Source of the DNA: Waddliaceae bacterium
GTDB lineage: Bacteria; Chlamydiota; Chlamydiia; Chlamydiales; SLFE01
NCBI GenBank assembly: GCA_963771045.1
Contig: CAVYRW010000004.1
Span: 1,824,001 to 1,888,000 of the forward strand
DNA: 64,000 nt
Direction of reading: 5' to 3'
Program-made: the position numbers and the translations under genes
The notes under the pieces: model-generated
Database searches by the model: none
What the model saw: only the letters and a program-made list of their open reading frames with translations
Told to the model about the DNA's origin: nothing
Shown: positions 1 through 6,491 of the stretch, in pieces
Layout: each line of letters begins with the position of its first letter
Position numbering within the stretch: position 1 is the first letter of the stretch

Positions 1-326
1 TTAAGCACACTGCGGTCCAAGTTCTTTAAATTGGGTATGCGGGCGGGGTCGATTTTTTCAAGCATCCCCTGTTTGGAGAGGATTTGTTCGTAGTAGTAAG
101 TGGGAAAAATGAGGTCGTACCCTTTCGCTCCGGATCTTAGCTTCGAATAAAGCATTTCATTCGAATCATAGCTGTCGATCACCACGCGGCAATGGCATTT
201 TCCTTCGAACTCTTTGATCACACCCGGGTCGAACATATCGGCCCAGCTGTATATATGAAGCTCTTTTTTCCCGTTATCGCAGGAGGCCAGACACAAAAGA
301 AGCCATAAACAGAGCCAAAGACGCAT
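1..326 (-). CDS. potD: Spermidine/putrescine ABC transporter substrate-binding lipoprotein (5' part; runs off window)
   Basis: Manual translation from ATG 326: MRLWLCLWLLLCLASCDNGKKELHIYSWADMFDP...YDSNEMLYSKL...GYDLIFPT; lipobox LASC; TGATG overlap with potC. Confidence 0.9.
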   Translation of the reverse strand, partial: MRLWLCLWLLLCLASCDNGKKELHIYSWADMFDPGVIKEFEGKCHCRVVIDSYDSNEMLYSKLRSGAKGYDLIFPTYYYEQILSKQGMLEKIDPARIPNLKNLDRSVL

Positions 327-1099
327 CACGCCAAACTCTCCTTAGTTAAAAGCTGAGTGATCAAAGCCAATATAAAAGTAACAGATAAAACGATCGTCGA
401 CAAGGCGTTGATGACCGGCGTCGCTCCGAACTTGATCATTCCGTAGACGTGAATCGGCAAAGTGCTCGTTCCGGGGCCGGCGACGAACGAGGTGACGATA
501 TAGTCGTCGATCGATATCGTGAACGCCAATAGGGCGCCGGAAATGATGCCGGGAGCGAGCATCGGGAGTATGATCCTCGTTAAGGCAGACCAAAGCCCCG
601 CTCCTAAGTCCTGAGCAGCTTCGACAACAGCGTAGTCGAAGTTATCAAGCTTGGCCAATACAACCATAGCCACATAGCTAATGCAAAATGTCGTGTGGGC
701 AATGATAATGGTGACAAGGCCGAGATTGATCGAAAGGGAGATAAACAAAAGAAGCAGGCTCATACCCATCAAAATGTCGGGAACGACAAGCGGTGCATAA
801 ACAAGCCCGTAATGGATGCGCTGCAACGCCGTCTGATAACGGTATAGAGCAAAGGCGCCCAAAGTCCCCATAAAACAGGAAGCAAAGGTGGCCGCCGATC
901 CGATGATCAGAGTATTTCTGACCGCGGCCCAGATGTCGCGGTCCTGAAAGAGGCGAATATACCATTTAAGGGAAAAGCCGCTCCATTCATGGCCGAACCT
1001 CGATTCGTTAAACGAAGTTGCCATCAGGATAATGATCGGCAGATACAAAAACAAAATGACAAGAAAAGTGACAATTTTCGGAAACGTTCCCGTCTTCAT
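326..1099 (-). CDS. potC: Polyamine ABC transporter permease
   Basis: FLYLPI, EAAQDLGA (EAA loop), FTISIDDY, TLPIHVY; position in potABCD; ATG 1099 overlaps potB stop. Confidence 0.93.
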   Translation of the reverse strand: MKTGTFPKIVTFLVILFLYLPIIILMATSFNESRFGHEWSGFSLKWYIRLFQDRDIWAAVRNTLIIGSAATFASCFMGTLGAFALYRYQTALQRIHYGLVYAPLVVPDILMGMSLLLLFISLSINLGLVTIIIAHTTFCISYVAMVVLAKLDNFDYAVVEAAQDLGAGLWSALTRIILPMLAPGIISGALLAFTISIDDYIVTSFVAGPGTSTLPIHVYGMIKFGATPVINALSTIVLSVTFILALITQLLTKESLA

Positions 1100-1968
1100 C
1101 AATGCCCCCTTTTCACACTATGGGATTTGCCGGCCCGGCCCTGAAGGACCGCCGCAATAACCAAAGGAACTAAAATAGACAGCGACAGAAAAGCCGACAA
1201 TGCGCTGGCAAGAGGGATATTCCTCTCGACAAATGTTTTTTGAACAATCTTATTACCGATCATTTCAGCATTCGTCCCCCCCACGATATCGGGAATGATA
1301 TAGGCGCCGAGCGCAGGGATGAATACCAAAAGAGTTGCCGCCATAATGCCCCGCCGGATCGAGGGGAGGAAAACCTTGAAAAAAGCCTTGAACCTGGTCA
1401 TTCCCAAATCCATGGCCGCTTCAAACAGATGATCGTCAAACTTGGAGGCCGCCGCGTAGATCGGCAGAATGGCAAAAGGAATATAACTGTAGACCATCAC
1501 AAGGATGACCGTCCAGGGATGGTAGAGAAGGATGGCGTTGCTCTTGACAATATGCAAGAAGACAAGGGCCTGTTTGAGAAATCCCTCCGGATGGAGCAAT
1601 ACTTTCCAGGCATAAATGCGAATGATAAAACTGCTCCAAAAAGGGAGGACGATGAGGAGAAGGAGCAGGTGCTTCCACTTGCTTTTCATCCTGGCAACGG
1701 CGAAACCGACAGGAAGGGCGAGCAGAAGGCAGAAGCTCGTAGCGATAAAGCTGATGAGAAACGAGCGGTAAATGATAATGAGGTTGCCGAAGCTGAAAAG
1801 GCTTTTAATCGTCTCCCATGTCCAGCCCGTACCGACGCCTCCATAGATCTCGGCCGGTTTGAAGGCAAATGCGTATACAATCAGAGTAGGGATCAAAAAA
1901 AACAGAGTCAGCCAAATAAAGGGAATAGCTGTAATGGAGCACTCGGATGATTTTGCCTTAACCCGCAT
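1099..1968 (-). CDS. potB: Polyamine ABC transporter permease
   Basis: LPFWSSFIIRIYAW, EAAMDLG, FIPALGAYIIPDIVGG; ATG 1968 preceded by GGGGAGGGG; start lies inside the palindromic element. Confidence 0.92.
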   Translation of the reverse strand: MRVKAKSSECSITAIPFIWLTLFFLIPTLIVYAFAFKPAEIYGGVGTGWTWETIKSLFSFGNLIIIYRSFLISFIATSFCLLLALPVGFAVARMKSKWKHLLLLLIVLPFWSSFIIRIYAWKVLLHPEGFLKQALVFLHIVKSNAILLYHPWTVILVMVYSYIPFAILPIYAAASKFDDHLFEAAMDLGMTRFKAFFKVFLPSIRRGIMAATLLVFIPALGAYIIPDIVGGTNAEMIGNKIVQKTFVERNIPLASALSAFLSLSILVPLVIAAVLQGRAGKSHSVKRGH

Positions 1969-2115
1969 TTCTCGCCCCTCCCCGTGAAAGTTGCGCAAGC
2001 TGCTTGCCTTGTTTGCAAAAACTCGAAGAGCGGCCCAGTTGCAAAACTAAACCGGCGAGAGTTTTATGCAAAATCGGCAAAGAAGTTGTGCCACTTTGTG
2101 AGAAATACGGGTTAA
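1958..2115. mobile_element. Non-autonomous palindromic element (MITE/RPE-like, family A) flanked by duplicated TTAA
   Basis: TTAACCCGCATTTCTC (1958-1973) vs GAGAAATACGGGTTAA (2100-2115) are 15/16 inverted; further nested arms (aaagttgcgcaa/ttgtgccacttt, ttgcc/ggcaa, tttgca/tgcaaa, aaaactc/gagtttt); excision restores a normal potA-potB overlap. Confidence 0.8.
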
Positions 2116-3290
2116 CCATCTCCCTCCTCCGATTCGTCGGTTTCCCCGACAGTTTCCCAGGGAAGCTCGGTCATTGACATATCCTCTTCGCTATACCTTT
2201 CAAGCATATAACCGTCATCGGCATGCCACCAGAGCCATACTTTTTCCTCCCAGGTTATCGGCTTGCCATCGAGGAGAAAGCGGCTGTTTGACTGCAATAT
2301 CGCGAAACGATAATCCTCGACCCTCACCCAATATTTCGTGTGGTCCCCTTTATAGACGATATCTTCGACCTCGCCCTGAAACACATTGTGCAGAGCATGG
2401 TTTTCGGGTTGTTTTCTAGAAATATGAATCTTTTCCGGACGGATGCTCATGTGGACAAGCTCGCCGATCTTCAGTTTCTTATCATTAAAGCAGGTCACGG
2501 TATGCGACAGCCCCTCCAGACTGATTTCGCTGTAGTCCTCGGAGCTTTTCTCGACCACTTTCCCGTCAAGGAAGTTTGTGTCGCCGATAAACGCCGCGAC
2601 AAAGCTGCTTTTGGGAGCCTCATAGAGCTCCATCGGAGAGCCGATCTGCTCGATCTTCCCCCAGTTCATGACAGCGATCCGGTCGCTGACAGCCATTGCC
2701 TCAGTCTGGTCGTGAGTCACGAATAAAAAGATAATGCCTACCTCGTCATGAATCAGGTCGATCTCCATTAGCATCTTCTGCCTCAGCTTGAGGTCGAGCG
2801 CAGAAAGCGGCTCGTCCAGAAGGAGAAGATTCGGCTGATTGATGAGGGCCCTTGCAATGGCGACCCTCTGTTTTTGGCCGCCCGAAATTTCAGCGGGTTT
2901 TTTGCTCCAGAAATCTTCCATTTGAATGAGGGAGAGCATTTTGTCCACTTCGCGATGAATCTCCTCAGAGCTTCGCCCCTTGACCCTCAGACCGAAAGCA
3001 ATGTTTTCCCAAACAGACAAATGCGGAAACAAAGCGTAGTTTTGAAAGACAGTATTGACAGGCCGCTTATTGGGAGGGAGGTAGGTGATATCTTGTCCAT
3101 TGAGAATGACCCTTCCCGAATCGGGCATCTCCAGGCCGGCGGCAATCCTAAGAAGCGTCGTTTTCCCGCATCCGCTGGAGCCGAGAAGGGAAAAAAACTC
3201 CCCGTCTTTGATTGTAAAGCTAACATTGTCAACAGCGGCAACATCTCCAAACTTTTTGGAAATATTCTGAAACTCCAGGATATTCGCCAT
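2112..3290 (-). CDS. potA: Polyamine ABC transporter ATP-binding subunit
   Basis: Walker A GSSGCGKTT, VNTVFQNYALFPH, ISGGQKQR, LLLDEP, TOBE-like C-terminus; ATG 3290 with GAGGG upstream. Confidence 0.95.
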   Translation of the reverse strand: MANILEFQNISKKFGDVAAVDNVSFTIKDGEFFSLLGSSGCGKTTLLRIAAGLEMPDSGRVILNGQDITYLPPNKRPVNTVFQNYALFPHLSVWENIAFGLRVKGRSSEEIHREVDKMLSLIQMEDFWSKKPAEISGGQKQRVAIARALINQPNLLLLDEPLSALDLKLRQKMLMEIDLIHDEVGIIFLFVTHDQTEAMAVSDRIAVMNWGKIEQIGSPMELYEAPKSSFVAAFIGDTNFLDGKVVEKSSEDYSEISLEGLSHTVTCFNDKKLKIGELVHMSIRPEKIHISRKQPENHALHNVFQGEVEDIVYKGDHTKYWVRVEDYRFAILQSNSRFLLDGKPITWEEKVWLWWHADDGYMLERYSEEDMSMTELPWETVGETDESEEGDG

Positions 3291-3318
3291 ATATTTTCTC
3301 CCTCGAAAACAGCAGATA

Positions 3319-3447: not shown

Positions 3448-5475
3448 ATGATTTCAGGATTAAGGAAAACCTTCAGCCAGCAGCAAGATCAAGTCAAAAC
3501 GATTCAAGATGTTAACAATCGAGGTTTGTTCGTCTGTCACAAAGCAGCCCTTTTCAAAAAACGGGATTACTGGGAGAAGGAAACCTGGTGGGATTGTATT
3601 GGTCATATTGCAGAAGGGAGGATAAAAAAGAAACGAATTTCCCAACAAGATCTTTTGCTCTGTTATCTATTTGCGATTGCCATTGATCCTAAACGAAGCA
3701 CAGAAGACAAACAATCCCTTTTCTCAAAATGTCAGAAAAAAGAAGACTCTTACTATGCTTTGGGCAAAAAGCTTCCCGCTGTTATGAGCACGCATATTCT
3801 GCGCTATTGCACATCTGATGTATGGGAAGGTTCGTGTAAGCAGATTCTGAAATATCGTGATATTTCAAATTACGAAAAATTTTTTATCAAATGGATCAAA
3901 CAAACAGTTGTTAATAAGTGGACTCAAAAGGAAAAGGAGGCATTTTTAGATAGACTCTTCTCTTTTCTCCCATCTAAAACAAGCGATGAAATCCTTTATT
4001 ATTCTCTGATGTATCTTTCTGCAGATCTGCAAAAACAGCTCTCTGAATGCTGTCCGCATTTACTGGCAGAGCGGATTGAAAACTTAAAAAAAGAGGTGGC
4101 TCAATTTGGCCAGTTTACTCTTTTGGGGTTAGAATCAAAAAAGGAGCCTGTTCAAATTCCCTTCAGCGGGAATCAAAGGCAATATTTTCTTAACTGGTTT
4201 TACAATAACGCCCTCGACCAAAATGATGCAACGTTTGTCGCCATAGATTTTAATAAACAGGACTGGAAATCTTTCCCCCCTTCCATATGCCCTTACGCTA
4301 TGAAATGGATGACGGCGGCAGCTAATTCCCCGAGCTGCTCCCCACAATTTTGGCTATTCTTTCACTGTGCCTCTCATGCGATTGAAAAGGAAGACGGATG
4401 GAAAAAAATTTCTTCTAAGGCCTATCAAGAATTTTTCAAAGCTTTAACTGGAAAGATTCTGGCTAAATTCTTTAATGCGTTTCCTGATGCATTGCAAAAT
4501 AAGATTGTTGAGAACTTAACAATTGAACCAAAAAGTTGGCTTCAAAACATTCTAGAAAATTCAAAAGATGATTTTGATTCCGTTACCTTCTCGATATCAA
4601 GAATTTTCACTTTGATTTCAAAAAAAAGATCGTCTCAAGCAGCTATTGCTGCCATATTCGACATAAAACAAAACAACAACGCTTTTATGCTAACGACTTT
4701 CTGTTCATTGAGCATGGACCACCGCGAAGAAATTCTCAGGCATATTCTGTTTGATCGTGCTGCGGGAATCGAGACGCTAAGTCGGTGGGTTGAACTTTGG
4801 CTTCAAAAGGGAGGGCCCCTAAGACCCTATACAAAAGAGATACTCGCAAAAGATTTCTATACTCTTTTACAAAAAGTCGACCCTACAGTGGCAAGCGAAC
4901 TAAAAGACGCCCTGGCATCTACTAACGACCAGGAAATGATCAACTCACTTCTCCCTGTCGGCATCGATTTCGCGGATCCACTCGTACGTCAATCAAAAGC
5001 TATCAAAAACCTGAAACACCATTTCCTCGCAACTCAAATATCAGATCGAAATAGAGAGAATTTTGTTAGAAGTTTGCGGAAAGACTTAGAAGGAGAAGAG
5101 GAAGCTTCTCTCTGGCTTCCAAAATTGTTTAAACAACTTCCCAAGCAAACCTGGCCTCTTATTTTTGTCTATTTTGCAAAAGAGCTTCGGGCGTCGAGCT
5201 GGATGCCCGATAGGAAGGAATGGGTCAGTATTGCCCAGGAAACGCTGCCTCAGATGATTGATAATCCTTGTTTGGAAAACCAAAGACGCGCCCTTACTTG
5301 CCTTCCTGACGATGCAATGGAGAGTCTTTATCAAGTTGCCAATGACACTCAAAGCATCAAGGCGGTGATTCAGAAATTCATTGAGAAAGCGCCGCCTGCA
5401 CAAGTTATCCCAGTCATGAATCTCCTGGGACGAAACAATTTCTGGGTGATACGGATGGATTTAATCAACTCATGA
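3448..5475 (+). CDS. Hypothetical protein (helical, AT-rich, orphan-like)
   Basis: 675-aa ORF with GGGAGG RBS; no recognised motif. Confidence 0.75.
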   Translation: MISGLRKTFSQQQDQVKTIQDVNNRGLFVCHKAALFKKRDYWEKETWWDCIGHIAEGRIKKKRISQQDLLLCYLFAIAIDPKRSTEDKQSLFSKCQKKEDSYYALGKKLPAVMSTHILRYCTSDVWEGSCKQILKYRDISNYEKFFIKWIKQTVVNKWTQKEKEAFLDRLFSFLPSKTSDEILYYSLMYLSADLQKQLSECCPHLLAERIENLKKEVAQFGQFTLLGLESKKEPVQIPFSGNQRQYFLNWFYNNALDQNDATFVAIDFNKQDWKSFPPSICPYAMKWMTAAANSPSCSPQFWLFFHCASHAIEKEDGWKKISSKAYQEFFKALTGKILAKFFNAFPDALQNKIVENLTIEPKSWLQNILENSKDDFDSVTFSISRIFTLISKKRSSQAAIAAIFDIKQNNNAFMLTTFCSLSMDHREEILRHILFDRAAGIETLSRWVELWLQKGGPLRPYTKEILAKDFYTLLQKVDPTVASELKDALASTNDQEMINSLLPVGIDFADPLVRQSKAIKNLKHHFLATQISDRNRENFVRSLRKDLEGEEEASLWLPKLFKQLPKQTWPLIFVYFAKELRASSWMPDRKEWVSIAQETLPQMIDNPCLENQRRALTCLPDDAMESLYQVANDTQSIKAVIQKFIEKAPPAQVIPVMNLLGRNNFWVIRMDLINS

Positions 5476-6491
5476 TATCCGCCCTCGAAAAAATAAAAGC
5501 CGGCAAAAAGGCCTTCATAGCCAAGTGTTTGATGGAAAAAGGGGCCGATATAACAAGCCCTATTGACTTAGAAGTCCTCTTTTGGAAAAAGCCCTACCTT
5601 AAAAATGACAAGGAAAGAAGCGCGCTCGCCAAAACCCTCATCCAGGAGATGGATATTAAGTTCCTGAATTATTTTTACAATTCAAGAGTCCCAATAACAA
5701 GTATTGTTAAAAGCCTTAAGATTACCGAACAAGCCTATACTGAACAAATGTTCTTTAAATGGATAAATTCGCTTTGCGAAGCAAATGACCGCATAGACAT
5801 TAGATTCACGATTTTTCAAAAGATTTGCTCCTCATATTCCAAAGCAGGTATGGACATATTCAAACTGCTAAAACATAAAAATCTACAGAAGTCATTGCCA
5901 ACAATTCAAAATTGGTTTGCCCGGTCCTGCCTCATCGACAATCATCTCTTTATAAAAAAAACGGAGGGCCTGACTCTCTTAAAAGCTTTTAATGAACAAG
6001 AATTGTATCCCGCTGTATTTCGTAAAATCGAGGCAATCGTCAATGATTTATGCGTTTCATTTTATGATTTGGAGGTTCTCTTCACTTCTCTTGAGAAATT
6101 AAGATGCAAAGATGAATGTCTCCGTCAACTTTTCGAAAAACAAAAAGACGTTGCCGCAGCATTGAAAACCTGTTTCGAAAAGCATTTGCTTAAGTGTTTT
6201 TTTCTTCATAACATTCCTCAGGTTATTCGTTTAGTTTGCCAATTGATTCCTACTTGGAAGAAGTCCCTGATCGCCTGGACCAAGGATCAGATCAAAGTAG
6301 ACAAAGAGGTGTCGATACATTATGGCAGAGAACCTCGGCATGATGATATCATCGCCCTTTTCAAATCGCTTAATGAAGTCAACTTGTTGGACGCTTTCAT
6401 GAGCTTGCTCAAGTCGGATGCTTCGGAGGAATTGGCTCGCGATATCAATGTTGTTTACAGTCAATTTTCCAAAAAAAAGAATAAAAAATAG
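5472..6491 (+). CDS. Hypothetical protein, possible paralog of upstream gene
   Basis: 339-aa ORF, ATGA overlap with the previous ORF; shares spaced motifs (MIS start, FFxKWI-like, NWF). Confidence 0.72.
   Translation: MISALEKIKAGKKAFIAKCLMEKGADITSPIDLEVLFWKKPYLKNDKERSALAKTLIQEMDIKFLNYFYNSRVPITSIVKSLKITEQAYTEQMFFKWINSLCEANDRIDIRFTIFQKICSSYSKAGMDIFKLLKHKNLQKSLPTIQNWFARSCLIDNHLFIKKTEGLTLLKAFNEQELYPAVFRKIEAIVNDLCVSFYDLEVLFTSLEKLRCKDECLRQLFEKQKDVAAALKTCFEKHLLKCFFLHNIPQVIRLVCQLIPTWKKSLIAWTKDQIKVDKEVSIHYGREPRHDDIIALFKSLNEVNLLDAFMSLLKSDASEELARDINVVYSQFSKKKNKK

Follow-up and report, generated by a model that had tools for sequence, protein, structure and literature searches.

How does an operon gene keep its start when a palindromic element lands across its first codons? 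The question is posed by a 64,000-nt stretch of a Waddliaceae genome (the window), in which potA and potB, neighbours on the minus strand of an intact potABCD-type operon, meet at a 158-nt element (1958-2115) with TTAA at each end. The features needed for an answer are the following.

2112..3293, minus strand: potA, polyamine ABC transporter ATPase, 393 aa (TIGR01187, 377.6 bits; cut-off 355.6)
2114-2112, minus strand: potA stop codon TAA, inside the left TTAA target copy
2120..2130, minus strand: old potB Shine-Dalgarno (SD) sequence, within the 3′ end of potA (predicted pairing to the 16S 3′ end of this genome, −11.2 kcal/mol)
1958..2119, minus strand: leader of 53 codons, from the old potB ATG 2119 to TAA 1960-1958; no NCBIfam match
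2112..2115, no strand: left copy of the TTAA target duplication, matching the right-hand copy
2098..2111, minus strand: left terminal repeat, ATA variant, with the 11-nt family segment absent between 2098 and 2097 (arm comparison and copy alignment)
1962..2111, no strand: MITE core of 150 nt, a long imperfect hairpin with IS1380-family ends (folding, shared ends and copy alignment)
2047..2049, minus strand: TAG in the potB frame within the element, a barrier to in-frame fusion and, were the 11 nt restored, a stop for the leader
1975..1983, minus strand: new SD-like sequence GGGGAGGGG, 6 nt before ATG 1968 (−11.3 kcal/mol, versus −3.2 on the other arm)
1962..1974, minus strand: right terminal repeat with the new potB start ATG 1968-1966, a triplet that is the family consensus
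1958..1961, no strand: right TTAA target copy, containing the leader stop (flank comparison and frame reading)
1099..1968, minus strand: potB permease, 289 aa, intact (best NCBIfam matches PotH/PotB, both below cut-off; 63–68% identity to three family relatives)
326..1102, minus strand: potC permease (NF007047, E = 3e-78, below cut-off)
3..329, minus strand: start of a binding protein, a 340-codon open frame running off the window, putatively potD-like from its operon position

Two long ORFs adjoin the operon, at window positions 3448-5475 (675 aa, without a match in an NCBIfam scan) and 5472-6491 (339 aa). The genome also yields a weak Chlam_OMP6 match (E = 1e-6, below cut-off, against 0 of 14 controls), in keeping with a chlamydia-like host.

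The insert measures 154 nt (3n + 1). Its terminal arms (1958-1973 and 2100-2115) are identical at 15 of 16 positions, the sole mismatch being ATG versus ATA, and its inner arms (1987-2021/2063-2097, 35 nt) are 71% complementary; the folding z-score is −3.81, with none of 200 shuffles folding equally well. Being short, bounded by terminal inverted repeats and devoid of a transposase, the element has the anatomy of a MITE. An Rfam covariance-model search returned only a 15.1-bit chance match, outside the element. When the element and one TTAA are removed in silico, the junction reads MVKAKSSE in the potB frame and overlaps the potA stop; with the element present, ATG 1968 reads MRVKAKSSE, and this in-frame ATG in the terminal repeat is what keeps potB intact. 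From the old ATG 2119 runs a stop-free frame that overlaps the new start by 11 nt. In these respects (the arm mismatch, the reconstructed reading frame and the 53-codon leader) our analysis reproduces the original prediction.

The insertion, with its TTAA duplication, is one of many. In the source genome (G000), BLAST, pattern and profile scans located about 10 paired and about 15 single ends, and the end pattern with at most two mismatches matched 35 times, versus 4 times in the reversed genome; at three mismatches the set becomes noisy (96 real versus 70 control matches). Element DNA was matched in G001, which with G002 represents the same genus (88% and 82% complete), a sequence search found no match in the other four family genomes, and of 301 genomes from the order, 20 contain the end pattern. 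One of these, G207, carries 288 ends in a 2.2-Mb assembly, and many of its contig breaks fall at ends. From 14 related genomes we collected 81 complete elements, a convenience sample of fetched loci rather than a census, with lengths of 37–228 nt (168 nt in 29); the methyltransferase and G000 nqrC copies discussed below lie outside this set, their ends being too decayed for the filter, and were treated by hand. In 53 of the 81 copies the two 4-nt flanks agree, and in 20 of those the match is informative because the sequence is not a palindrome; the remaining 28 copies have unlike flanks. A 2-bp TA duplication, which fits several G000 copies, was dropped as the main model given the 20 non-palindromic 4-nt matches, and may still apply to some copies, as 28 flank pairs differ. 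Dispersed copies and empty orthologous sites thus identify the family as MITEs, the empty site of potB itself being imperfect. The family is undescribed in the open full-text literature searched (main texts, with few subscription papers and no supplements), and the consulted portion of the Waddlia genome paper mentions many repeats and does not describe this family.

Its ends point to an origin. A viral-contig scan turned up a 1,712-nt element (L304) that matches at both ends and carries a gene for an IS1380 transposase (NF033539, 408.7 bits; cut-off 180), and a second locus (L301) has one matching end and an IS1380 transposase scoring 414 bits. Because it shares its ends with L304 and lacks a transposase of its own, the potB element is an IS1380-type MITE, and it would have been mobilised in trans by an IS1380 transposase. 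A cognate transposase was not found in the same genome: none exceeded the cut-off in G000 (90.6% complete), a search with a single protein query detected none in G001, G219 had none either, and G207 and G267 hold fragments only. At another locus (L257), an IS1634-like ORF lies near an element end, an association by proximity alone.

The family also recasts the two adaptations that had been proposed for this site, a change of ATA to ATG and the gain of an 11-nt SD-bearing segment. Among 126 outward terminal triplets, ATG is the commonest (63, followed by ATC, 26; ATA, 17; and AAG, 11), and an ATA arm is paired with an ATG arm in 23 of the 81 copies; judged from these copies, the mismatch at potB is inherited. 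The 11-nt segment (1976-1986) is indeed unique within the potB copy, but in the family it is standard and present in both arms. When eight orientation-matched copies were aligned, six of the seven others spanned the 11-nt columns in the left arm, the proV copy having a longer gap, and aligning the potB copy with the 165-nt nqrC copy opens just one gap, of 11 nt, in the left arm. This single gap indicates that the left arm lost the segment rather than that the right arm gained it, and 165 minus 11 gives the 3n + 1 phase. Site-specific gain of both features is therefore scarcely credible, even though SDs are stronger at start-like ends (median −7.95, n = 10, versus −4.3, n = 174; p = 0.003, in the noisy three-mismatch set) and gene-feeding arms carry GGG(A/G)AGG-type sequence at the SD position, which makes some SD sharpening plausible. 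Of the idea of a domesticated MITE, the MITE remains and the ATG and the 11-nt gain fall away as adaptations; other forms of adaptation are probable. The likely candidate at potB is the 11-nt loss from the left arm, probably accompanied by a sharper SD. Eight identical BLAST matches to the G-rich stretch (1975-1983) were rejected as a chance resemblance to another, unrelated multicopy IS, whose left end lies on C4 of G000 at 546384, 793369, 913939, 1100757, 1122962, 1519179, 1665554 and 1703005, with a variant at 259643.

The same comparison bears on a second suggestion of the original prediction, that one spurious base in the assembly masks an RPE-style in-frame insertion in PotB. Deleting any one of 86 bases in 1961-2048 would yield a fused frame, in-frame copies do occur in the family, and stray single bases split two essential genes of G000 relative to G001 (dnaE, C4:1947081-1951000; rpoD, C1:45766-47180), so that caution about assembly indels is warranted. 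Yet 1961-2048 contains no extra base when compared with the nqrC copy or with a copy from another assembly (G001), the 11-nt loss from 165 nt already accounts for the phase, all 13 known fusions use another target phase and G001 has a twin 3n + 1 case (L035). As it stands, the potB insert is 154 nt long with TAG 2049-2047 in the potB frame, and we consider an assembly error highly improbable.

Why such insertions are tolerated becomes clearer from the target phase. The element end reads ...GTGAGAAATGCGGG and is followed by a YTAR target, a combination with a survivable outcome in each of three phases. First, in phase NNY|TAR the target is itself a stop codon, and 19 of the 81 copies follow a long frame ending there. 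Second, phase YTA|R leaves both ends open and gives in-frame inserts (LARISH...CEKCGL); all 13 fusions among the 81 copies lie in this phase, so that RPE-like insertion (3n, with an open fused frame) is found at the family level. Inserts of 53 aa interrupt a YidD-like protein (G000 C4:212238-212400) and folE, encoding GTP cyclohydrolase I (C4:1406102-1406264), and are absent from G001 and G002. Third, phase NYT|AR brings the terminal ATG into the reading frame of the gene, as at potB.

Several further insertions were noted. A copy at the rpoD stop is shared by G000 (C1:47171-47341) and G001 (L037/L331), and dinG appears to start at an ATG inside it; the G001 copy has a 9-nt deletion downstream of the dinG ATG and a 26-nt deletion upstream. 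A single element end is read in frame (CEKCGL) at G000 C4:510684-510720, within a putatively Maf-like ORF without a Pfam match. The yidD-like gene of G001 (L222) carries a different palindromic insert of about 140 nt near its start.

Rescue by the terminal ATG recurs at seven insertion sites with a visible old start in three genomes: potB, nadC, a methyltransferase and nqrC in G000, a desaturase and UvrD in G001, and AtuA in G075. Empty orthologues confirm the changed start at nadC, the methyltransferase, nqrC and UvrD; an orthologue of the desaturase without the element differs in its first codons. At all seven sites the old start reads stop-free to the far end of the element, and the leader stops close to the new ATG (+8 at potB, nadC, the methyltransferase and the desaturase, −6 at nqrC, and +13 at UvrD and AtuA). 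In the shortened nqrC allele of G001 the stop lies at +1, giving a 4-nt overlap. The SD is stronger on the gene-feeding arm in six of the seven copies. The in-frame ATG with its strong SD and the recurrent leader geometry accord with the original prediction.

These cases must be read with care. Control readings of other copies were open to the far end in 36 of 150 instances (24%), or 17 of 122 for copies of at least 140 nt, and the sister cases are not independent, being mostly drawn from a single subfamily in an orientation that natively reads open. The +13 stops at UvrD and AtuA fall outside the initially set window of −6 to +8, which counts against coupled rescue. ATG ends were enriched at long ORFs in G000 (5/16 versus 0/19, p = 0.013, including one false and one uncertain case), and no enrichment was found at long ORFs elsewhere (3/46 versus 2/48, p = 0.67). 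A counter-case is proV, inserted in another phase, where the frame from the old start ends after 15 codons: on its sequence, proV needs and, like dinG, appears to use an ATG inside the element. That copy, at the lpxD/proV overlap (G000 C4:719416-719607), has an extra 40-nt internal hairpin and severs proV from its old start. The copies at the AI-2E transporter and tag, with degenerate left ends, were excluded from the leader count, and three start calls (C4:1433615, L249 and L363) were dropped because the real start lies downstream.

What did the potA/potB junction look like before the insertion? Among 11 related junctions none has a spacer, in agreement with the original prediction, and five, among them those of each of the three family members with the operon, show the 8-nt overlap of the reconstructed site. 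Because potA and potB were not found in G001 and G002, and scans of metagenomes and genomes returned no relative above 67% identity, a clean empty site for potB is lacking. Four runs were compared as contigs, of which X1–X3 have no depth in bins 1937-2137. The fourth, X4 (about 90% identical, depth 2.9), leaves out 1969-2115, still matches at 1968 and carries two additional letters, making its junction 9 nt longer than a simple empty site; this junction seems to retain the terminal ATG. With a close relative differing in this way, the reconstructed sequence is a candidate for the ancestral junction. Two readings of the X4 junction are available: an element left it behind as a scar when it was lost, or the host site resembled an element end from the outset. 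At the end of dnaE the same motif is shared by G000 and G001 alone, next to a repeat remnant, and the G002 end differs, which favours a scar at X4 without proving it.

The second of these options would mean that the host already encoded the MRVK start, the element having landed on an end-like site and duplicated an existing start. The longer X4 junction is consistent with this, as are a distant relative (L051) that natively ends potA and starts potB around GGGTTAAGG, the ability of IS1380 transposases to use IR-like sites, described in the available text of one report (PMC9330008), and the 10 of 126 outer flanks that terminate in GGG or CGG. We nevertheless find it unlikely, as the 8-nt overlap of the simple empty site recurs in 5 of 11 junctions and in every family operon, the dnaE motif is tied to a repeat remnant, X4 may be a deletion scar, and the empty sites of nadC, the methyltransferase and nqrC begin differently.

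We think it probable that potB was saved by coupled rescue, the element end supplying the start and the leader from the old start handing ribosomes to it. A transposase-less, IS1380-ended element sits in TTAA two codons into potB. In a copy of the subfamily length, 165 nt, the leader would have ended 81 nt too soon and the new SD would have been paired; loss of 11 nt from the left arm would then have put the leader in an open frame and freed the SD. Ribosomes leaving potA would restart at the old ATG 2119, melt the hairpin as they translate the leader and terminate on the new start, with potB beginning at ATG 1968.

Several observations are consistent with this course of events. The potB copy is oriented opposite to most sister cases, and in this orientation the 165-nt form has a TAG in the gene frame: restoring the 11-mer of a sister copy in the model ends the leader at −81 and raises the predicted cost of opening the RBS from 23.7 kcal/mol in the native sequence to 47.9. 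With the leader held single-stranded the cost is 14.5 kcal/mol, within the range of 18 ordinary starts (5.0–15.9, median 10.6). Against the reading, a ribosome modelled mid-leader (codons 10–45) did not lower the opening cost (20.5–30.1). Prior work tempers the picture. According to the sections of a recent review that we drew on (PMC12548453), both unfolding and reinitiation models of coupling are current, the question is unsettled, and coupling in E. coli is best at −4 to +3 nt, its efficiency dropping with overlaps beyond 4 nt; the 11-nt overlap at potB therefore weighs against tight coupling. Also counting against the reading, an SD precedes only about 30% of overlapping genes in Chlamydiae, as stated in the available part of PMC6728339.

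The same data bear on a simpler account, in which the element survived neutrally: it provides the start, ribosomes initiate potB independently, and both leader and 11-nt deletion arose incidentally. The new SD is about equal to the old one (−11.3 versus −11.2 kcal/mol), indels are frequent in the family, as the range of copy lengths attests, and roughly a quarter of control readings are open by chance. We hold this account to be unlikely, given that ATG 1968 is predicted to be fully paired in naked RNA (probability unpaired 0.00), with the native opening cost far above the median of ordinary starts, and that leaders are open at every one of the start sites.

The hairpin could alternatively act mainly on the mRNA, through RNase III cleavage or pausing that lowers potBCD relative to potA, or potB could be undergoing silencing. 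The long stem is stable, and RNA processing occurs at Neisseria and Yersinia repeats. Against these possibilities, the potB, potC and potD-like frames are intact, and positions 1900-2400 of the window contain no promoter or same-strand terminator consensus. We judge them very unlikely, and coupled rescue at potB remains the reading we prefer.

A broader proposal can be made only tentatively: IS1380-type ends may be translation-neutral in all three target phases, allowing a single MITE family to colonise starts, stops and interiors of genes across gene-dense genomes of chlamydiae, with selection then rebuilding coupling copy by copy and a donated start perhaps outlasting the element. If so, the 11-nt loss at potB, the ATGA overlap at G001 nqrC and a convergent sharpening of SDs would be instances of rebuilt coupling, and starts that outlast their element, as the X4 junction and the dnaE end might exemplify, would rewrite gene starts and leave little trace. 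Coupled rescue would explain how a selfish element can settle where operon genes overlap (potAB, nqrBC) in a compact genome and leave the junctions intact. The empty, full and deleted states would form a natural series for discriminating RNA-unfolding from reinitiation models of coupling. For annotation, the warning is that N-termini such as MRVK, MQAN and MRAK in these genomes can derive from transposons.

Other repeats share parts of this behaviour; the comparisons that follow draw on the available portions of the cited papers. Rickettsia palindromic elements (RPEs; PMC10969869, PMC3184786) are hairpins of about 150 nt lying in frame within housekeeping genes, as do 13 of the 81 copies of the present family; the potB copy differs in being out of frame, and the likeness drawn here is one of size, fold and placement. 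Neisseria REP2 and Borrelia IR-A (PMC3184786) resemble it in carrying an RBS and ATG for a downstream gene; REP2, however, lacks terminal inverted repeats, carries a promoter and lies upstream of genes without displacing an existing start.

With the IS1380 family the element shares terminal repeats identical to those of L304 and a short target duplication; it differs in lacking a transposase, in its length of about 165 nt and in a duplication of mostly 4 bp (YTAR). By comparison, IS1247, an IS1380-family member, has 1,672 bp, IR 16/13 and DR 5 (PMC3281130). The effects described for the family are outward promoters (PMC9330008), unlike the translation start supplied at potB; in the portions consulted, the IS1380 papers mention promoters and gene capture and do not mention start codons (PMC3281130, PMC4133298, PMC9330008).

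Another parallel is with mycobacterial interspersed repetitive units (MIRUs), in which the element's own ORF is coupled to the gene at −4 nt (PMC12548453). Both are small mobile repeats at start codons, and in both a short frame ends on the gene start, likely preserving expression by coupling. The −4 spacing is not seen at potB, where the overlap is 11 nt and the leader begins at the host ATG; a 4-nt overlap is found only in the G001 nqrC derivative. Unlike MIRUs, the potB element inserted downstream of the start, so that the host's old start drives the leader; potB-type elements supply a new SD and ATG, at spacings of −11, +3, −4 or −16, and have IS1380-type terminal repeats and a target duplication. 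The potB element is thus a real insertion that works like the MIRUs yet is distinct from them.
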